From contig CAKOHI010000001.1 of the NCBI GenBank assembly GCA_934085585.1, positions 8,549 through 72,548 on the forward strand: a stretch of DNA of 64,000 nt. The letters are read 5' to 3'. This DNA is from an uncultured Bacilli bacterium. GTDB taxonomy: Bacteria > Bacillota_I > Bacilli_A > RF39 > UBA660. Shown in pieces: positions 668 to 64,000 of this stretch. The position numbers and the translations under genes were made by a program. The notes under the pieces were generated by a model. The model did not search any database. It saw only the letters and a list, made by a program, of their open reading frames with translations, and was not told where the DNA came from. Position 1 is the stretch's first letter. The number at the start of each line of letters is the position of its first letter.

Positions 668-2765
668 CTGTTTCTCCTTTTACTAATTCAAAATCTATTA
701 TACCTTGATTTTTATTAGCATTGGTTACAACAATTCTTACTTTATCTCCGATACGATATTTTTTCCTTTTGTCATTACTTATTAATGATAATAGTTCAGG
801 AACATATGTGAAAAATCCATCCAGGGTACTTATATGAACAAGACCTTCGATTAAATTATTAAGTTCTACGAATAAACCAAAGTTGGTAACACCACTTATG
901 ATACCTTCATATTCTTCACCAATATGACTTTCCATATATTCAGCCATTTTCATATCAAGAACATCTCTTTCAGCTTCAATAGCATTAACTTCTGTTTCAC
1001 TAGAGTGATCAGCTACATCTATTAAATATTTTGCATTAAAATTGACAGTTTCTAAGTCAATTCTCTTTTCAAAAAGATATGTTCTTAAAAGTCTATGAAC
1101 TGTAAGGTCTGGAAATCTTCTTATCGGACTAGTAAAATGTGTATAATTTTTACTAGCTAGACCAAAATGTCCGATGTTATTTGTACTATAAATTGCTTTT
1201 TTCATACTGCGTAAAAGCATGTCAGAAAGAATTATAAATTCATCTTTATCACGTAATTCATTTAAAATACTTTGCATTGTTAATGGTGATATCTTTTTCA
1301 TATTAGTATGAATTTGATAACCCATTTGTTTAATTAAATTACTAAAATCTTCAATTTTTTCAGCGTTTGGTAAATCATGAACACGATAAATGAATGGTAA
1401 ATCCATATTACTTATGTGAGTTGCCACTGTTTCATTTGCAGCGATCATAAAGTCTTCGATAAGTTTTTCACCAGTTCCTTGAACTCTTTTTACTATATCA
1501 ATCGCTTTGCCATTTTCATCTTGAATTACTTTTGCTTCGTCAATACCAAAATCTATATAACCACGTAATGTTTTTTCTCTTCTTAAAATTTTGGATAGTT
1601 CGTGCATTAGTTTTAATGTGTCAACAAATTCTTCATATCCTTCAGGAACTTCATTTAAATCTAAAATCTTATTAACATTTTTGTAAGTCATTTGTTTTCT
1701 AGATTTAATAAATGATTGAAATATGTCGTAAGATTTTACTTTTCCAGATCCATCAATAGTCATTTCACAACTGATTGTTAATCTCACTACTTCTGGATTT
1801 AAGGAACAAATACCATTTGATAATTGATGAGGAATCATTGGAATAACAGTATCTGCTAAATAACTTGATGTTCCTCGGGAAAAGGCACTTTCATATAATT
1901 CTGTTCCAACTTTTACATAATATGATACATCTGCAATATGAACACCAAGGTGATAATTGTTACCATCAAAACTTACACTTATGGCATCGTCAATATCTTT
2001 AGTATCATCTCCATCTATTGTAAATATCATTTCATTTGTTAAATCTTTACGACCAATTAAATCATTTTCACAAACTTCATCAGGTATGTTTTTAAGTTCT
2101 TGTTTTACTGCTTCGCTAAATTCTGTTTCGATACAGTGTTTAGCTGCAATTGTTAAAATGTCAACTCCAGGATCATTTTTATGCCCAATTATTTTTTCTA
2201 CTTTACCTAAAAATGTTCTATTTCCAATTTCTTTAATAATTGAAACTATTACTTTATGTCCTTCAACACAGCCTTTCATGCTTTCTTTAGTAAGTTTAAC
2301 AGCGATATTTAATTTTTCATCATCAGGCCTAAAAACTAATGTTTTTTTATCTTTTACCATTTCCCCAACAACTGTTTTTAAATCTCTTTTTAATATATTT
2401 CTTATATATCCTTCTGGTTCTGGATCATTAAGTCTAGTTTTAATTTCTACTTCAACAAAATCTCCGTTTATAGCTCCGTTTAAATCATTACTATGAACAA
2501 ATATATCTTCTGGTTCACATTCTACAAAACCATTGCCACTTTTATTAATTTTTAATTTTCCTACTTTTAATGATTTTGTATTATTTAGTAACATATATTC
2601 TCTATTTTTTGACATATGCAAAACACCTTCACTAACTAATTCGTGAAGGGTATTTTCTAACTCATTTACCCCATTTAAATCTGTTAAATGAAGTTTATTA
2701 TTTATTTCATTTATACTTTGGCCTTTTGTTTCGTCTTTTAATACTTCTACAATTTTTTCCTTCAT
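651..2765 (-). CDS. rnr: ribonuclease R
   Basis: Track ORF is 651..2792. RNB catalytic motifs (DGDDTKDIDDAISV, HFGLA...YTHFTSPIRRFPDL) and a C-terminal S1 domain. I prefer the ATG at 2765 (MKEKIVEV, GAAGGA upstream) because it removes the overlap with the upstream gene. Confidence 0.92.
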   Translation of the reverse strand: MKEKIVEVLKDETKGQSINEINNKLHLTDLNGVNELENTLHELVSEGVLHMSKNREYMLLNNTKSLKVGKLKINKSGNGFVECEPEDIFVHSNDLNGAINGDFVEVEIKTRLNDPEPEGYIRNILKRDLKTVVGEMVKDKKTLVFRPDDEKLNIAVKLTKESMKGCVEGHKVIVSIIKEIGNRTFLGKVEKIIGHKNDPGVDILTIAAKHCIETEFSEAVKQELKNIPDEVCENDLIGRKDLTNEMIFTIDGDDTKDIDDAISVSFDGNNYHLGVHIADVSYYVKVGTELYESAFSRGTSSYLADTVIPMIPHQLSNGICSLNPEVVRLTISCEMTIDGSGKVKSYDIFQSFIKSRKQMTYKNVNKILDLNEVPEGYEEFVDTLKLMHELSKILRREKTLRGYIDFGIDEAKVIQDENGKAIDIVKRVQGTGEKLIEDFMIAANETVATHISNMDLPFIYRVHDLPNAEKIEDFSNLIKQMGYQIHTNMKKISPLTMQSILNELRDKDEFIILSDMLLRSMKKAIYSTNNIGHFGLASKNYTHFTSPIRRFPDLTVHRLLRTYLFEKRIDLETVNFNAKYLIDVADHSSETEVNAIEAERDVLDMKMAEYMESHIGEEYEGIISGVTNFGLFVELNNLIEGLVHISTLDGFFTYVPELLSLISNDKRKKYRIGDKVRIVVTNANKNQGIIDFELVKGETDGNSK

Positions 2766-2770
2766 ATTTT

Positions 2771-3136
2771 CTATCCTTCTTTGTGTGTACATATCATTTT
2801 ATTATCTTTCCAAGATATTTCTATATAGCTCTTTGTATCATCACTAATTTTTTTCTTCGTCAAAGGATTTTTTAAATCTTTGTTAATATAACCTCGATCA
2901 ATTAATTTTTCGTATTTTACTTTACATAAATACTCGAACCCATTGCAAATTTCTTCGGTATAGTTTTCATCTTTAGCTAATTGGCAAGCATAATTTTCTA
3001 ATTTTTTATGATATTCATCCATTTGTTTTGATTTTATACCACCAAAAATCAGAATAATTGCCAAGAAAATTGTAATGGCTATAATTAATATTAGTAATAT
3101 TGTTAACACCCTTTTTTTATTCTTCATAATTATCAC
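2771..3136 (-). CDS. small membrane-anchored protein, pilin-like C-terminal pattern
   Basis: N-terminal TM helix (VLTILLILIIAITIFLAIILIFGG) and Cys-containing globular part. ...GYINKDLKNPLTKKKISDD parallels ...GLISKNLKNPSSNKLVTED of the adjacent prepilin. The track start is GTG; the ATG at 3127 is an alternative. Confidence 0.5.
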   Translation of the reverse strand: MIIMKNKKRVLTILLILIIAITIFLAIILIFGGIKSKQMDEYHKKLENYACQLAKDENYTEEICNGFEYLCKVKYEKLIDRGYINKDLKNPLTKKKISDDTKSYIEISWKDNKMICTHKEG

Positions 3137-3164
3137 ATATAAAGTATAACATATTTATTCTTAT

Positions 3165-3521
3165 TTAACTAGTCTTTATTTTACAACTTTTTTCATTATT
3201 AGCTAAAGAAAAGTTAATTTCCACACCTTTTATATCGGTATCTTCTGTTACTAACTTGTTACTTGATGGATTTTTTAAATTTTTACTAATTAATCCAGCG
3301 GTTAATAAAGTATCAATATTTACTATTTTAGATTCATTAAGATTATTTATTTCTGCATAAACACATGCGGCTTTTTCAATTGTTTCATAATAATCTTTTA
3401 ATTTTTTATCATCTTCATTTTTAAATACCTTACTCATGCTTACTCCGACTGTTACAGATATTGCTGCAACTAGGGCGATAACTACTAAAATTTCAATTAA
3501 TGTAAATCCTTTTTTTTCCAT
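3165..3521 (-). CDS. prepilin-type N-terminal cleavage/methylation domain protein (type IV pilin or pseudopilin-like)
   Basis: Start moved to the ATG at 3521, which has AAGGAGAAG upstream. MEKKGFTLIEILVVIALVAAISV is the canonical class III signal (G|FTLIE plus hydrophobic helix). Confidence 0.75.
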   Translation of the reverse strand: MEKKGFTLIEILVVIALVAAISVTVGVSMSKVFKNEDDKKLKDYYETIEKAACVYAEINNLNESKIVNIDTLLTAGLISKNLKNPSSNKLVTEDTDIKGVEINFSLANNEKSCKIKTS

Positions 3522-3683
3522 TTTCTTCTCCTTAATATTTTCTAAATAAATTATACTATATAAATTTATAAATTGCATTATTTTTAATAAATTTAAAAGA
3601 AGCATTATTTTTGCTTCTTACTAATTATGTTAGACTTTCAACTTCACCATTGTTTTCATATTTATAAATGTTAAAATAAAAAC

Positions 3684-4726
3684 TGATAAAATTGGTTCTT
3701 CGAAATCTGGTGGGGAGTAAAAATTGAATAAAGTCAATTAAAACCTAAATATAACAAGTATTTTAACCATTCATTTTAAAATGCTTGTTTTTTATTGCTG
3801 ATACACCTTTATTTTTATATTTTTTTAATTCTTACTTTTTTAGTTTTTTTAATCTTTTCATATTTTTATTATTTAAAATATATAATAATCTAAGTCTAAA
3901 AAAAACAAAATCTTTATATCCAAATCCTACTCTTTTAATCACTTTTATTTTATTATTTAATCCGTCTGTAAATCCGTTTGAAAATCTTTTATTAATTACA
4001 TATATATTCTAACCAATTTTCTATTGTATTTGCTGCCTCGTTCATTTCTTCTATGTTTTGTTCTCTTACTAAAGCTATCCAGTTAATTAATTGATTTTTT
4101 ATATTCTCATATGTAGCGTGATGTGTTATGTCTAGAAACAATTCTTTTAATTGATATGACATTTTTAATTCTTCATCAATATCAAGCATACTTTCTCTTA
4201 AGCTAACGTTCTTTTTATTCTTTAAGTATTCTATATTCTTTACTATTATAACCATAATTATCTTGCAACCTAATTCTGACTTTATCTAGCGCATCCATTA
4301 TATATCTGGTATAATGAAATGGGTCAACCGCATACTTTGCTTTGGGAAACATTATTGTGGTGACTATTCGGTATGATTCATACATTTCTGATATGACATA
4401 CTCAACTGAATGCCTATTTTCACAATATGTAAAATATTGTATTAGGTATTCTTTTTTTCTATTTGAAAGTACATCCAACGTTTTTTATGTATTGGGTCAT
4501 TTAATACAAATGCATATTTTCCTTCTTTTGTATCTGCTTTAAATTCATCAAATGATATAACTCCTTCATCTAACCCCATGATTTTTCTTAGCTCAATCAC
4601 TAAAAAATTTCACCTCTTTCTATATTCATTATCACATATAAAAAGAGATGATTAAATACTTTCATCATCTCCCCATCAGTTTTCGAAGTTTTTCTATAAA
4701 AACTCCCCACTACTTTTCGAAGAGCC
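3684..4726 (-). mobile_element. degraded ISL3-family insertion sequence (internally deleted, about 1.04 kb)
   Basis: Imperfect terminal inverted repeats: ggttcttcgaaatctggtggggagt from 3684, and the reverse complement of the right end, ggctcttcgaaaagtagtggggagt, ending at 4726. Flanked by near-identical direct repeats gataaaatt (3675-3683) and gataaatt (4727-4734), a likely target duplication. Transposase remnants lie inside. Confidence 0.7.
3832..4600 (-). pseudogene. ISL3-family transposase pseudogene (N-terminal third missing, at least 3 frame breaks)
   Basis: Pieces in three frames: ...GVISFDEFKADTKEGKYAFVLND..., ...MFPKAKYAVDPFHYTRYIMDALDKVR..., ...NWLEYICN, and ...FSNGFTDGLNNKIKVIKRVGFGYKDF.... 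These are typical ISL3 DDE-transposase blocks. The zinc-finger/HTH N-terminus is absent. Confidence 0.7.
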
Positions 4727-16534: not shown

Positions 16535-16563
16535 TTGATTTAATGGCTTGATTTTGCTATAAT
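16535..16563 (+). promoter_or_regulatory. sigma-A-type promoter for the small plus-strand ORF
   Basis: TTGATT (16535-16540), 17-nt spacer, then TGcTATAAT (-10 at 16558-16563, extended TG). Confidence 0.55.
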
Positions 16564-16632
16564 AATTTCCATGGGAACTTTGATTGTTGGGTGTTAACCT
16601 TCTTTATTTTAATAAATGAGGGAGGAATGTTT

Positions 16633-16725
16633 ATGAAGTTACAAACTTTCATTTTGAGGGTTTTGGCATTTATATCATTTGATTTGTTATTAATTATCAT
16701 TTTGATTTTGATAATAAAGAAATAA
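16633..16725 (+). CDS. 30-aa hydrophobic peptide, candidate type I toxin
   Basis: Not in the ORF track. GAGGGAGG sits 7 nt before the ATG. MKLQTFILRVLAFISFDLLLIIILILIIKK is a single TM helix with a KK tail. It has its own promoter and a perfect terminator hairpin. Confidence 0.5.
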   Translation: MKLQTFILRVLAFISFDLLLIIILILIIKK

Positions 16726-16825
16726 TACCCAATCAAGCTTGATTGGGTAAAACCTAAATATATGGCTGACACTCAACGTGCAAAATCGAAGTGTCCCATT
16801 TTTATTTTATGCAAATTTCTTTGCT
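16715..16825 (-). ncRNA. candidate convergent antisense sRNA (antitoxin) overlapping the 3' end of the small-ORF mRNA
   Basis: Minus-strand promoter TTGAAA (16855-16860), 17 nt, TATGAT (16832-16837). The transcript would end at the 16727-16748 hairpin. Boundaries are inferred only. Confidence 0.3.
16727..16748. terminator. perfect 22-nt palindrome, bidirectional terminator
   Basis: acccaatcaagcttgattgggt, with A-rich sequence before it and T-containing sequence after it. Lies 2 nt after the stop of the small ORF. Confidence 0.6.
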
Positions 16826-16871
16826 AGATACATCATATCATAGCTAAATATTTTTTTCAAGTCGAGTTATT

Positions 16872-20060: not shown

Positions 20061-20895
20061 TTACCATCCTTTCTGCTATCTTTTTACCATTTGTGGTTGG
20101 ATTATTAATAACTTTACCATTAAAATACATTGTATTTGATCCACCGCCATCTAAATTATATAAAGTTTTTACCCCAATAGATTTTGCAAATGTAGCAAGT
20201 TGGTAAAGTGATAAGCCTTTATTTTCATTTGTTCTTCCGTCTGATACAATAAATATATAATGGTTTTCATCTATTATACCAAGTGCTGTTCGTGGATTAC
20301 TAGCCATAGATTTACTAACTTCTTTAGTTTCATTTATGTTAATAACTCCATCAATTAATAGTGCTGGACCAAAAGATAGTACTTGATATGCTCCTTTTTC
20401 TTTTAGTTTTTCAAGGCTAACGTTTTTTTCATTTATTATTTCAAATGTACCATTTTCATATATTACTAAATCTTCTTGATTAGATTTTGGTTTATCTCGA
20501 TATATTTCTCCGTTTCTTAAAACATATCCTGATTCTTGAACTCCATAATAATCTCCATTTATAGCAAGTATGGCATTATTTGCTGAAGCAATACTAGAAG
20601 TTTTACTTGTTACATTTTTTCCATAAGAATTATTAGCAAATGCTGTTTTTAAATAATTACTACTAGCATATATATTTGCTACATACATATTTGTATTATA
20701 TTCTCTGTATGTTGATATATCTATTTTAATGTTTTCATCTTCATAAGAATTATCAGTGTATGTACCATTGTAATTTATTGTACTTATATTATCTACTTTT
20801 TTATAGACTTTTGTTAATACTAATGTGTCTAAAATAACATAAACTGTAAAACTCGTTAACATGATGTAATATATGATTAAAGCTCTTTTTTTCAT
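20035..20895 (-). CDS. phosphodiester glycosidase family protein (NAGPA/DUF2233-like), membrane anchored
   Basis: N-terminal TM. AILAINGDYYG, NPRTALGIID..., SDGRT...GLSLYQLA..., NLDGGGSNTM match the family blocks. Confidence 0.8.
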   Translation of the reverse strand: MKKRALIIYYIMLTSFTVYVILDTLVLTKVYKKVDNISTINYNGTYTDNSYEDENIKIDISTYREYNTNMYVANIYASSNYLKTAFANNSYGKNVTSKTSSIASANNAILAINGDYYGVQESGYVLRNGEIYRDKPKSNQEDLVIYENGTFEIINEKNVSLEKLKEKGAYQVLSFGPALLIDGVININETKEVSKSMASNPRTALGIIDENHYIFIVSDGRTNENKGLSLYQLATFAKSIGVKTLYNLDGGGSNTMYFNGKVINNPTTNGKKIAERMVSDIVYIGY

Positions 20896-56771: not shown

Positions 56772-57275
56772 TTAGTATTTATTTAATAATTCCTGTAAAT
56801 AAGATGTATATGTGATATCGTCATAATCAGTTTCGTTTGCTTCAAGTAAACATAACGGAGGAAATAATACACACCACCAATTATCTCCGAGACCATCTCC
56901 TAAGGTTACTACTAGAGATTCGTAATTTCCACCTTTATAAGTTACTCCTTTATAATTTTTTTCAGGGAAGTAGTTAAGACCATAATTTATATTATAATTA
57001 GAATTATACTTATTAATAACGTTATTTATTTTATTCATATTTAAATCTATTTCATTTTTTGTTTCTTCTTTAGAATCTGAATTATTTAAAATATCAGCTA
57101 TAATTGGTTCTAGTTCATTTCTTATTTCAATTTTTTCTTTTTGATCTTCAATCGAGTTGCTATTAGCTATAATTCTAAATCTTATAGCATCATCTGGTAT
57201 TAATACTTTAGTATCATTTTTATTAACTAAAACAAGTATTGTCATTATAAATAAACTTATTATTATTTTTTTCAT
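56772..57275 (-). CDS. spoIIR: stage II sporulation protein R
   Basis: IRFRIIANSNSIEDQKEKIEIRNEL... and ...WWCVLFPPLCL are SpoIIR hallmarks. ATG at 57275 (AGGTGA RBS). Confidence 0.85.
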   Translation of the reverse strand: MKKIIISLFIMTILVLVNKNDTKVLIPDDAIRFRIIANSNSIEDQKEKIEIRNELEPIIADILNNSDSKEETKNEIDLNMNKINNVINKYNSNYNINYGLNYFPEKNYKGVTYKGGNYESLVVTLGDGLGDNWWCVLFPPLCLLEANETDYDDITYTSYLQELLNKY

Positions 57276-57414
57276 ATTGATCACCTAAAATATTGATGGG
57301 CATAAAATAGAATATTTATTCATTGAATCATAATAATTAAATTTTAAAATACTATAAGTAAATATATAAAAACTTTTTTTGGTATTTTATTTTCCTAAAA
57401 GCCACATTATCCCC

Positions 57415-57443
57415 TTTACTGATAGCCACATTTTTGGTATAAT
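57415..57443 (+). promoter_or_regulatory. promoter of the second small-ORF locus
   Basis: TTTACT (57415-57420), 17 nt, TGgTATAAT (-10 at 57438-57443). Confidence 0.45.
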
Positions 57444-57539
57444 AAATATTGAAACATTTGATTGTTGGACGCCTACTACCGGAGTAGTTAGCAATCTCCT
57501 TTAAACGGGGGTTTTGGTAATTATGAAAGGGGTGGTCTT

Positions 57540-57650
57540 ATGAGATTAAAGTCGATTAAGTCTTTTTTAATGATGCTTTTAGCAACATTAAAAAAATGTT
57601 TACTTGTCATTATAAATGTTCAAGTAAACATCCAAATCAATAAAAAGTAG
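57540..57650 (+). CDS. 36-aa peptide, candidate type I toxin (paralogous locus)
   Basis: Not in the ORF track. AAAGGGGTGG lies before the ATG. The peptide is MRLKSIKSFLMMLLATLKKCLLVIINVQVNIQINKK. It is embedded in a highly structured ~230-nt transcript. Confidence 0.45.
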   Translation: MRLKSIKSFLMMLLATLKKCLLVIINVQVNIQINKK

Positions 57651-57711
57651 GCATCTGACTGACAAAAATCAAATGTTTCTTTTTTTTATTATATGAAATG
57701 TTCTTTCATAT
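57588..57711 (-). ncRNA. candidate convergent antisense sRNA overlapping the 3' half of the 36-aa ORF
   Basis: Minus-strand promoter TTGAAA (57741-57746), 17 nt, TAATAT (57718-57723). The perfect 11-bp hairpin atgtttacttg/caagtaaacat (57596-57631) is followed on the minus strand by T7, an intrinsic terminator inside the ORF. Confidence 0.35.
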
Positions 57712-57820
57712 ATACCTATATTATCATATATTTAATGGTATTTCAAGTTATTTGATTATGAATTCTTTATCGTTTTTTAAATGTACTAACAATTTCAAAA
57801 TTTAGTTAATTGTAAATCAA

Positions 57821-58540
57821 TTATTTAAAAATAAACAAATATCTTGGTAATCCTTGGAAATCATTTTCAAAACTGTATTTTAAATTTAGTTTTTTTATAA
57901 TATCTTCTAATAAATTTTTTTGATTATCTCCGAATTCAAAGGCTATTATTCCTGGACTATTTAAATTATTCAAATGTTTTTTTAATATTTCTTTATAGAA
58001 AAATAGTCCATTATCACTTGCAAATAAAGCTATATTTGGTTCATTTTCTTTAACTTTATCTTCAACATAACCATTATATGGAATATATGGTGGATTAGAT
58101 ATAATAATGTCATAATTATTACTTAAATTTTCAGTCATACTTTTATTTATAAAATTTATTTCTGTGTTATTAAGTTTAGCATTTGTTTTTGCTACTTCTA
58201 AAGCATCCTTGGAAATATCTAGAGAAGTTACATTACAATCTAAATTTTTCTTTAATGAGATTGCTATACATCCACTACCTGTTCCTAAATCGATTATATT
58301 TATTTTTTTATTAAATATACTCTTTGCGTATTTAATAGTTTTATCTACAAGCAATTCTGTTTCAAATCTTGGAATTAATACTTTTTCATTTACATTTATT
58401 ATATTTCCGTAAAATTCCACATTCCCAAGTAAGTATTGAGGTGGATAACCTGTTGCTAACTTGTCTAAAAGTTCATTTATATTTGGATATTTTTTTGTTA
58501 ATAACTCCCAGTCTGGGAAACTTATATAATCTGGTTTCAT
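57821..58540 (-). CDS. prmC: release-factor glutamine methyltransferase (short form)
   Basis: DLGTGSGCIAI SAM motif and NPPY. Immediately downstream of prfA. Confidence 0.85.
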   Translation of the reverse strand: MKPDYISFPDWELLTKKYPNINELLDKLATGYPPQYLLGNVEFYGNIINVNEKVLIPRFETELLVDKTIKYAKSIFNKKINIIDLGTGSGCIAISLKKNLDCNVTSLDISKDALEVAKTNAKLNNTEINFINKSMTENLSNNYDIIISNPPYIPYNGYVEDKVKENEPNIALFASDNGLFFYKEILKKHLNNLNSPGIIAFEFGDNQKNLLEDIIKKLNLKYSFENDFQGLPRYLFIFK

Positions 58541-62166: not shown

Positions 62167-64000
62167 TTGAAAGCTATGAGATTTTTGGTAAAAAGTTTTA
62201 TTTTCTTGTTTATATCCTTCGTGGTAATACTAGTCGGGCTTTATACCTATGCTTATTTAAGCCCAAAACTTGATTTAAAAACTAGTGGAAGTCTTTATTT
62301 ATATGATAATAAAGGTGAATTATTATATCAAGGATCAAGAAGTAATGAATGGGCTAATTTAGAAGATATAAATGAAAATTTAATTAATGCTGTGATTGCT
62401 GTTGAAGATAAAAATTTTTATAATCATCATGGATTTGATTACTTGAGAATAGCTAAAGCAATGGCTACGAATATTAAGAAAAAAAGTATTGTTCAAGGAG
62501 CATCTACTATTTCTCAACAATATATAAAAAATTTATATTTAGATTTTGATAAAACTTGGAAAAGAAAAATTGAAGAGGCATTTTTAACTTTAGAACTCGA
62601 GGTACATTATGATAAAAATGATATTTTGGAAGGTTATCTTAATACTATAAACTATGGTCAAGGGAATATGGGAATTGTAAATGCTGCAAGCTATTATTTT
62701 AATAAAAAACCTAGTGAACTTTCTTTAGAAGAAGCAATTATTTTGGCGGGTATTCCTAAAAATCCTGGTAATTATAATCCTGTTTCTAATTATGATGCTG
62801 CGATTAAAAGAGCTTGGGTTGTTGCTAAAGCTATGCTAAATAATAATTATATAGATGAAGAGACTTATAATAGCTTATTTCAAAATAAAATAGAAATCTA
62901 TGGACAAGTAAAAAATAATAATTTACAAATGATTATGTATTATCAAGAAGCAGTTTTAAATGAATTAAGTAATATTAAAGAAGTTCCATCTTCTTTAGTT
63001 AATGCTGGTGGTTTAAAGATTTATACTAATTTGGATTTGGAAATGCAAAAAAATATGGAAGAAAATATTTTAAGTAATAAAGCTAATGATGATATACAAG
63101 TTGCAAGTGTTATTGTTGATCCAAATACGGGAGCAATTAAGGCTTTAACCGGTGGTATGGATTATGCAAAAAGCCAGTATAATAGAGCTTTAAAAAGTAA
63201 AAGACAAGTTGGATCTACGATGAAACCATTTTTGTATTATGCGGCTTTGGAAAATAATATGACTATGTCTAGTACCTTTAGAAGTGAAGAGACTACTTTT
63301 AATTTATCTAATGGGAAAACTTATACACCTGGAAATGCCGGCAACTTATATGCAAGTAAAGAAATAACTATGGCTGCTGCTTTGGCTTTATCTGATAATA
63401 TATATGCTATTAAAACTAATTTATTTTTAGGTATTGATAAAATGATTGAAGTTGCTAAAAGAACTGGTATTAAAACTAATTTAGATGAGGTTGCATCTTT
63501 ACCTCTGGGAACAAGTGAAATAAATATTTTAGATTATGCAACTGGGTATACAACACTTGCTTCCGGAGGTTTTAAAAAAGATTTATATTTTATAGAAAAA
63601 ATTGAAGATTTGGATGGAAATATACTATATGAACATGAAAGTTATGATAATTTAGTTATAAATCCCAATTATACTTATATTTTAAATGAAATGATGAATA
63701 CCACTACGAATGATGCGTATGTTGATTATACTACGCCAACTGCTTTAAATATAGCTTCTAGTCTTACACATAAGTATGCCTTAAAAACTGGATCTACGAA
63801 TACAGATTATTGGATTGTTGGTTATAATAAAGATGCACTTGTTATGATGTGGATGGGATATGACAATAATTTAAATGTTGATAATAAAGTAAGAAACAGT
63901 GCTAAAAAAACTTGGGCATCTACGATTGAATTTGCATTAAAAGATATTGATACAAGTTGGTATGAAACACCTAAAAATGTGGTAGCTTTACCCCTTGATG
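62167..64000 (+). CDS. class A penicillin-binding protein (glycosyltransferase GT51 plus transpeptidase), 3' end outside the window
   Basis: Not in the ORF track because it is open at the edge. TTG at 62167 (AGGTGA 6 nt upstream) or ATG at 62176. AVEDKNFYNHHGFD, GASTISQQ, RKIEEA (GT51), then STMKP and ...KTGST... transpeptidase motifs. Confidence 0.9.
   Translation, partial: MKAMRFLVKSFIFLFISFVVILVGLYTYAYLSPKLDLKTSGSLYLYDNKGELLYQGSRSNEWANLEDINENLINAVIAVEDKNFYNHHGFDYLRIAKAMATNIKKKSIVQGASTISQQYIKNLYLDFDKTWKRKIEEAFLTLELEVHYDKNDILEGYLNTINYGQGNMGIVNAASYYFNKKPSELSLEEAIILAGIPKNPGNYNPVSNYDAAIKRAWVVAKAMLNNNYIDEETYNSLFQNKIEIYGQVKNNNLQMIMYYQEAVLNELSNIKEVPSSLVNAGGLKIYTNLDLEMQKNMEENILSNKANDDIQVASVIVDPNTGAIKALTGGMDYAKSQYNRALKSKRQVGSTMKPFLYYAALENNMTMSSTFRSEETTFNLSNGKTYTPGNAGNLYASKEITMAAALALSDNIYAIKTNLFLGIDKMIEVAKRTGIKTNLDEVASLPLGTSEINILDYATGYTTLASGGFKKDLYFIEKIEDLDGNILYEHESYDNLVINPNYTYILNEMMNTTTNDAYVDYTTPTALNIASSLTHKYALKTGSTNTDYWIVGYNKDALVMMWMGYDNNLNVDNKVRNSAKKTWASTIEFALKDIDTSWYETPKNVVALPLD

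Follow-up and report, generated by a model that had tools for sequence, protein, structure and literature searches.

Gene context and layout of locus 2

The window analyzed here is a stretch of 64,000 nucleotides (nt) of DNA from an uncultured Bacilli bacterium (GenBank assembly GCA_934085585.1, contig CAKOHI010000001.1, positions 8,549 to 72,548) with a GC content of 26%. A candidate type I toxin-antitoxin (TA) module, termed locus 2, was found in a 536-nt spacer with spoIIR on one side and prmC on the other (Table 1). It consists of two convergent predicted transcription units, a structured sense RNA that bears a short open reading frame (ORF) and an antisense RNA of about 120 nt lying over its 3' part, as the preliminary description of this DNA had proposed. 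The elements named in that description, namely, the sense promoter, a 12-mer in the leader, the motif CTCCTTT, a Shine-Dalgarno (SD) sequence, an ORF of 36 codons, the 5'-3' fold-back pairs, the antisense promoter, and an 11-bp hairpin, were all found where it had placed them. Two T-runs required correction. The fold-back's 3' arm is followed by T8 rather than T9, and the run after the 11-bp hairpin (57596 to 57631), given as T7, has a length of 6 or 7, according to whether one assigns the A at 57596 to the stem.

A promoter scan gave 8 promoter-like matches, versus 6.2 expected. There is no enrichment in number alone, and the significance of the matches rests on their conservation across alleles.

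Table 1. Features of locus 2, its neighboring genes, and its paralogue, locus 1 (window positions)
Feature	Position	Strand	Remarks
spoIIR	56772-57284	-	Neighboring gene
Sense promoter, TTTACT-17-TGgTATAAT	57415-57443	+	Left edge of the module; promoter scan score 10/12, extended -10
Predicted sense RNA, ~240 nt	57450-57688	+	From ~7 nt past the -10 through the T8 run
Closing helix, 5' arm	57451-57477	+	Holds the 12-mer TTTGATTGTTGG (57457-57468)
Closing helix, 3' arm	57646-57679	+	Spans the stop codon; T8 (57680-57687) follows directly
Leader hairpin, 16 bp	57484-57524	+	Top is CUCC:GGGGG; top called terminator-like by the scan
Shine-Dalgarno sequence, AAAGGGGTGG	57526-57535	+	5-8 nt ahead of the ATG; core AAAGGGG at 57526-57532
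ORF, 36 amino acids (aa), MRLKSIKSFLMMLLATLKKCLLVIINVQVNIQINKK	57540-57650	+	Uninterrupted in the window group, in L075, and in L054
Antisense terminator	57590-57631	-	11-bp stem plus inner 4-bp stem, then U-run; inside the ORF; -12.6 kcal/mol
Predicted antisense RNA, ~120 nt	57711-57590	-	Coordinates from promoter and terminator
Antisense promoter, TTGAAA-17-TGaTAATAT	57746-57718	-	Right edge of the module
prmC	57821-58540	-	Neighboring gene; prfA likewise on the - strand
Locus 1	16535-16860	+	Distant paralogue of locus 2
Locus 1 sense promoter, TTGATT-17-TATAAT	within 16535-16860	+	
Locus 1 ORF, 30 aa, hydrophobic	16633-16725	+	Ends ahead of the antisense terminator hairpin
Locus 1 antisense terminator hairpin	16749-16726	-	
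Locus 1 antisense promoter, TTGAAA-17-TATGAT	16860-16832	-	

A helix that brackets the predicted sense transcript

The predicted sense RNA (57450 to 57689) folds with a minimum free energy (MFE) of -73.9 kcal/mol and a z score of -8.0 against shuffled sequences. Its first 30 nt and last 36 nt form a duplex of -31.3 kcal/mol, whereas 4,000 control windows of the same geometry gave a mean of -5.8 ± 2.7 kcal/mol and a minimum of -24.2 kcal/mol, none of them reaching -25 kcal/mol. The inverted pairs within this closing helix are 57451-57463/57667-57679 and 57471-57477/57646-57652. In both paralogues the helix begins 1 to 2 nt past the predicted transcription start site and finishes at the U-run, so that it brackets the predicted transcript exactly.

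Covariation among collected homologues, a check put forward in the preliminary description, was analyzed on six sense RNAs, the consensus fold of which contains 77 pairs with 97% of the cells paired. Four compensatory double changes were found, two in the closing helix (columns 20/206 and 24/202) and two in the leader hairpin (columns 39/71 and 42/68), a number that was reached in 4 of 500 column shuffles, while slid controls gave 0 to 3; all four come from the single divergent homologue L054, and their statistical weight is therefore modest. The homologue L075 is a recombinant whose 5' half is of the window type and whose 3' half is of the L054 type, and one of the covarying closing-helix pairs is broken in it, as would be expected if the two sides had co-evolved.

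The motif CTCCTTT (57496 to 57502) had been described as able to pair with the SD sequence. This pairing is neither the favored nor the conserved fold; in both the MFE structure and the six-homologue consensus, the CUCC pairs with GGGGG (57508 to 57512) in the leader hairpin, the element in which two of the compensatory changes lie. A mini-ORF reading MKGVVL (57523 to 57543), whose stop codon, TGA, shares bases with the start codon of the 36-aa ORF (ATGA) in a mok/hok-like manner, was considered and rejected, being frameshifted in L004, absent from L054, and probably due to chance.

The predicted antisense transcription unit

The antisense RNA (57711 to 57586) also folds more stably than expected (z = -4.95) and opens with a 5' hairpin at 57711 to 57691. 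Its predicted overlap with the sense RNA, 57590 to 57688, amounts to about 100 nt of full complementarity and takes in the 3' part of the sense RNA only, stopping 50 nt downstream of the ATG. The antisense terminator was missed by a simple terminator scan because of its long loop and bulge.

Both ends of this unit are conserved. The hexamers of the antisense promoter (TTGAAA and TGnTAATAT) and their 17-nt spacing do not vary among the window, L075, and L054, with spacer sequences that differ throughout. In the terminator stem, none of the 15 pairs varies among six distinct homologues, and substitutions are confined to the loop. Between the window and L054, the A-run and hairpin together show 1 change in 42 positions, versus 14 to 21% of positions changed in the other RNA segments. 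One trait of type I systems, an antisense RNA that is encoded in cis, is complementary to the toxin mRNA, and has a promoter and a terminator of its own, is predicted in silico for locus 2.

Locus 2 is gained, lost, and moved as a unit

A prmC-spoIIR spacer of about 540 nt was found only in the window lineage and in a group with 95% identical SpoIIR (L003 to L005, L063, and L076), which is 92 to 93% identical to the window over the spacer. The spacer measures 42 to 45 nt in the groups whose SpoIIR is 82% and 75% identical. In a group with 87% SpoIIR identity, prmC has been replaced by other genes and 35 nt of the left arm of the hairpin remains. Upstream of spoIIR in this group (L006, 206 to 2040; also L007) are genes for a PemK-like protein of 243 aa and an HTH/Peptidase_U49-like protein of 361 aa. 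The gene replacement in L006 and L007 marks the region upstream of spoIIR as a hot spot of recombination or insertion.

In L075, the locus 2 unit is located between a holin-like gene and spoIIR, and homology to the window stops just beyond the antisense -35 box. The gene that adjoins the module there in the place of prmC (L075, 3135 to 3404, + strand) encodes an 89-aa membrane protein with a weak match to Phage_holin_5_2 (2e-4, below the cutoff). In L054, which belongs to a different species and is 84% identical, the unit lies beside a T-box-regulated gene with flanks that have no homology to those of the window, and the match extends from the sense -35 box to just beyond the antisense -35 box. 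The interval that is gained, lost, or moved thus runs from one -35 box to the other, approximately 57415 to 57748, which is the behavior of a self-contained module.

Compared with module-free genomes, the insertion junctions (57316 to 57326 and 57815 to 57827) carry similar short repeats, TTATTCA and, at the prmC stop codon, TTATTTA. The left junction resembles a remnant of the old prmC 3' end and could be a target duplication or a recombination scar.

L054 carries an IS110-family element (2292 to 3861; DEDD_Tnp_IS110, 3e-30, plus Transposase_20; transposase ORF at 2541 to 3746, + strand). The T-run that separates the 3' arm of the sense RNA from the antisense 5' hairpin is its exact point of insertion. 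On the same contig, a promoter module (1855 to 1938, - strand) matches the locus 2 antisense promoter (3862 to 3928) with about 90% identity across some 45 nt and is positioned some 57 nt upstream of a T-box leader (1661 to 1845, - strand) that precedes a thrS-like gene; the leader was detected with 54 bits (E = 2.5e-11), below the Rfam gathering score of 93. This module may have arisen by duplication or co-option of a promoter cassette, or it may be what is left of a tandem copy. Elsewhere in the related DNA, L052 (~450 to 470, - strand) contains an RF2-type gene with the classical CTTTGAC programmed-frameshift site; UGA accordingly functions as a stop codon in the clade, for which translation table 11 is the suitable one.

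Locus 1, a distant paralogue

The preliminary description had recognized a second locus of the same architecture in the window, and this relationship was upheld. The layouts of loci 1 and 2 agree element by element, with almost equal lengths and with antisense terminator hairpins equidistant from the 12-mer, and both antisense RNAs start with a 5' hairpin. The global identity between the loci is 50%, compared with 42 ± 3.6% (maximum, 47.5%) for random pieces of the window. By blastn, the two loci share two weak colinear matches. In nhmmer searches of about 700 kb of related DNA, the locus 2 profile found locus 1 orthologues at E values of 3e-4 to 0.04 and the locus 1 profile found locus 2 at an E value of 0.17; these reciprocal matches were the best non-self matches, colinear, and nearly full length. 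No further copies were found by nhmmer in the same DNA. No similarity between the two peptides was detected by BLASTP. From these comparisons, loci 1 and 2 appear to be distant paralogues of one family, with a homology that is weak but detectable.

The 12-mer occupies position +8 of both sense RNAs (16579 to 16590 in locus 1), and these are its sole exact copies in the window. It is the only long identical block between the paralogues and reads TTTGATTGTTAG in some locus 2 alleles. Likewise, exact occurrences of TTGAAA-N12-TATGATA in the window are confined to loci 1 and 2. A 12-mer match with one mismatch at 63810 and a blast match at 20419 both fall inside coding sequence and were discarded as chance.

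The closing 5'-3' helix of locus 1 comprises 26 bp (fold z = -8.3; duplex, -30.8 kcal/mol), and its SD sequence is fully sequestered in a 12-bp hairpin. The locus 1 peptide is extremely hydrophobic, with a grand average of hydropathy (GRAVY) of 1.93 and a best 19-aa window of 3.24. Across species, locus 1 is conserved at 90 to 93%, versus 84 to 86% for the flanking coding sequences. By its predicted features, locus 1 is the better-behaved copy, with a textbook hydrophobic toxin. Its ORF is itself polymorphic among the window and its orthologues (L055, L058, L060, and L069; L052, L053, L061, L067, and L083): in four loci, on two different A-run backgrounds, codon 19 has changed from TTA to TAA, and A7/A8 slippage at the end of the ORF results in products of 30 or 36 aa.

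Distribution and database searches

No Rfam family reached its gathering score anywhere in the window, and scans of both loci at E ≤ 10 returned only noise. Pfam and NCBIfam (E ≤ 10) gave no match for either peptide. Not one of five peptide variants was recovered by exact search from a collection of 15 billion predicted proteins, and a HMMER (phmmer) search of the locus 1 peptide against 1.84 billion representative proteins returned a single match, a mis-called 66-aa "hypothetical protein" that is an orthologue.

A three-part sequence pattern identified 3 true loci in GTDB species representatives and 16 in metagenomes, all of them orthologues with at least 84% identity and, wherever a source is given, from human gut samples; no third, more divergent subfamily was found in these pattern scans of GTDB genomes and metagenomes. 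No match was obtained by blastn in plasmids. In viral contigs, neither the hairpin pattern nor the three-part pattern gave a true match, and the 36 matches to a two-part DNA pattern were all rejected as chance. SpoIIR homologues indicate an uncultured Firmicute of the human gut, related to "Firmicutes bacterium CAG:460," with genomes of about 1.1 to 1.3 Mb. The family is unannotated and, within the reach of these searches, narrow, being confined to a clade of uncultured small-genome gut Bacilli.

Is the 36-aa peptide a toxin?

The toxin claim for locus 2 is weak by these in silico measures, and it is doubtful that the 36-aa peptide is a toxin. The main alternative, which we regard as unlikely on balance while taking it seriously, is that the RNA pair alone is conserved and that locus 2 is a relic with an inactive toxin or a regulatory cis-antisense small RNA (sRNA) pair. 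The ORF would then be incidental, because its frame runs through the antisense terminator hairpin, the element under selection.

To the modest weight of the covariation, noted above, are added several points that speak against a functional toxin at locus 2 and mostly favor this alternative. The composition of the peptide is atypical: its GRAVY is 0.74 and its best 19-aa hydropathy is 2.06, but its net charge is +7, Lys-Lys stands midway in its sole hydrophobic stretch, and by prediction it does not form a clean transmembrane helix; as noted, BLASTP detected no likeness to the locus 1 peptide. Codon 17 is TAA in 5 of 12 loci, all of one lineage (L003, L004, L005, L063, and L076), and the 16 aa left end just ahead of the hairpin, where the locus 1 ORF also stops. 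Coding constraint outside the hairpin is weak. The ORFs of the window and L054 differ by 7 nonsynonymous and 4 synonymous changes, and the ratio of nonsynonymous to synonymous change per site (pN/pS) is 0.74 in codons 1 to 16; the value of 0.12 in codons 17 to 36 is confounded by the hairpin. Between the window and the truncated lineage there are 5 nonsynonymous changes and no synonymous ones. The L054 ORF is still open, with Leu13 changed to Pro, although the IS110 element severs the antisense RNA and leaves none that is usable. Locus 2 as a whole is slightly less conserved than its flanks (92 to 93% versus 95%), and its SD sequence is only weakly paired in the consensus fold.

The signals for translation are nevertheless retained. 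Every homologue, including the one of 84% identity, has kept the SD sequence with its purine-rich GG core, the ATG, and a similar spacing between them, together with the N-terminal motif MR(L/F)KSIxSFLM, and the 36-codon frame is open in three of the four lineages, in DNA whose GC content of 26% makes stop codons frequent. In the lineage with the nonsense codon, both promoters have decayed as well, the sense promoter being weakened (TTTATT with a 16-nt spacer; TATAAC in L003) and the antisense -35 box mutated to CTGAAA. Such joint decay is expected if the ORF mattered and the toxin has died. The locus 1 ORF, as described above, is polymorphic in a similar manner. An early reading of the TAA in L003 to L005, that the 36-aa ORF is simply unconserved, was softened for the reason that the frames of L054 and L075 are open.

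Chromosomal copies of modules such as hok/Sok and aapA/IsoA are often inactivated. Locus 2 may itself be atypical or in decay. Of the possibly new type I TA family that had been proposed in the preliminary description, then, the module behavior, the structure, and the novelty hold, while the toxin of locus 2 is put in question by its charge, the nonsense allele, pN/pS, and the state of the ORF in L054. With the interpretation partly supported in this way, the two loci probably constitute a new, unannotated type I TA-like family of the Gram-positive 3'-overlap kind.

Comparison with known type I systems

In Gram-positive type I pairs, the mRNA of the toxin and the antitoxin RNA are convergent and overlap at their 3' ends by approximately 75 to 120 nt (PMC4147584; PMC8594479), the overlap of txpA/RatA being about 75 nt and that of bsrG/SR4 about 120 nt (PMC4147584). 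The predicted overlap of about 100 nt at locus 2 falls within this range, and its convergent 3' arrangement is that of the Bacillus subtilis pairs txpA/RatA and bsrG/SR4 (and of bsrE/SR5 and yonT/SR6). Also shared with txpA/RatA and bsrG/SR4 are the short ORF, an antitoxin that has a promoter and a terminator to itself, and a position at a variable site of the genome. In contrast to these two pairs, neither the peptide nor the RNA of locus 2 matches Pfam, NCBIfam, or Rfam models (E ≤ 10, with only noise from Rfam), the whole sense transcript is closed by the 5'-3' helix, the peptide is cationic with an interrupted hydrophobic stretch, and the host is an uncultured small-genome gut bacterium.

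In hok/Sok of plasmid R1 and aapA/IsoA of Helicobacter, a 5'-3' fold-back closes the full-length toxin mRNA and holds it translationally inert (PMC8594479, PMC6733600). The locus 2 sense RNA has a long-distance 5'-3' fold-back like those of the hok and aapA mRNAs. However, the antisense RNAs of hok/Sok and aapA/IsoA act on the 5' part of the mRNA, around or upstream of the start codon, whereas that of locus 2 takes in the 3' part and, with it, the 3' arm of the fold-back. Locus 2 further differs from both in having no conserved coupling ORF and no sequence or profile similarity to them, and those families are proteobacterial.

With the par system (Fst/RNA II) of the Enterococcus faecalis plasmid pAD1, locus 2 shares a Gram-positive host, convergent RNAs, a small peptide, and perhaps translation that is limited by structure. 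The par RNAs have one shared bidirectional terminator and interact through 5' direct repeats. Unlike them, the locus 2 RNAs have separate terminators about 100 nt apart and full complementarity over about 100 nt. The peptide matched no Pfam model at E ≤ 10, the Fst model included if Pfam has one; 5' repeats were not specifically searched for.

Proposed mechanism and remaining alternatives

On balance, and with some reserve, we favor the reading of locus 2 as a type I TA-like module of the Gram-positive kind, atypical in itself, that together with locus 1 forms a narrow, undescribed family. This reading builds on the two promoters, the helix that brackets the transcript, the terminator, the overlap, and the module behavior, each of them observed and compared.

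Under this reading, a sigma-A-type promoter would give rise to a sense RNA of about 240 nt carrying the SD sequence and the 36-codon ORF. The extreme 5' end would pair with the extreme 3' end over 26 to 27 bp just ahead of the U-run, and the whole sense transcript would thereby be closed into a compact, poorly translatable fold. From the convergent promoter, an antisense RNA of about 120 nt would be made that ends at the invariant hairpin within the ORF and covers roughly the final 100 nt of the sense RNA, with the closing helix's 3' arm among them. By analogy with txpA/RatA and bsrG/SR4, it may pair with the 3' region of the sense RNA, and the duplex may be cut by RNase III, the mRNA may be remodeled, or both, so that the peptide would not be made. 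The antisense RNA holds a near-copy of the 5' arm of the sense RNA and would consequently compete with that arm for the 3' arm.

An RNA-centered version of the module, which we consider improbable, would assign the closing helix itself the role of the sense terminator, to be displaced by the antisense RNA, with the 12-mer at +8 as an RNase or protein site and the peptide as a non-membrane cationic effector or dispensable. The idea that the closing helix acts as an intrinsic terminator stems from the lack of a local terminator hairpin at locus 2.

It is less probable still that the features are signals of the neighboring genes, with the minus-strand hairpin serving as the prfA-prmC terminator, the minus-strand promoter serving spoIIR, and the sense features being coincidental. 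In its favor, the neighbors are all minus-strand genes, the stretch from prmC to the hairpin has no second terminator, and a T-box leader in L054 is driven by a promoter module of very similar sequence. Yet the unit occurs without prmC in L075 and without either neighbor in L054, relatives that lack it manage with a 42-nt spacer, and the terminator is located between the promoter and spoIIR; the sense fold and its covariation would also be left unexplained.

Equally remote is a nonautonomous element resembling a miniature inverted-repeat transposable element, whose 13- to 27-bp repeat would be a terminal inverted repeat and not an RNA helix: presence and absence among close relatives, occurrence at other sites, and nearly perfect repeat arms would suit it, but the conserved and moved unit runs 36 nt and about 70 nt past the arms to take in both promoters, the two copies in the window are only about 50% identical with none further in the related DNA, arm changes are compensatory rather than identical, and no match occurs in plasmid or viral collections.

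Implications for uncultured gut Bacilli

The practical consequence of these findings is modest, amounting to two short genes and two sRNAs to annotate in these genomes. Natural variants bearing on function are already at hand in the nonsense alleles, the IS110 insertion that severs the antitoxin, and the recombinant that breaks a covarying pair, and the helix abutting the U-run offers a testable idea of how such mRNAs may be terminated and silenced. If the type I TA-like reading holds, an unannotated family would be added to those of the uncultured, small-genome Bacilli of the human gut.

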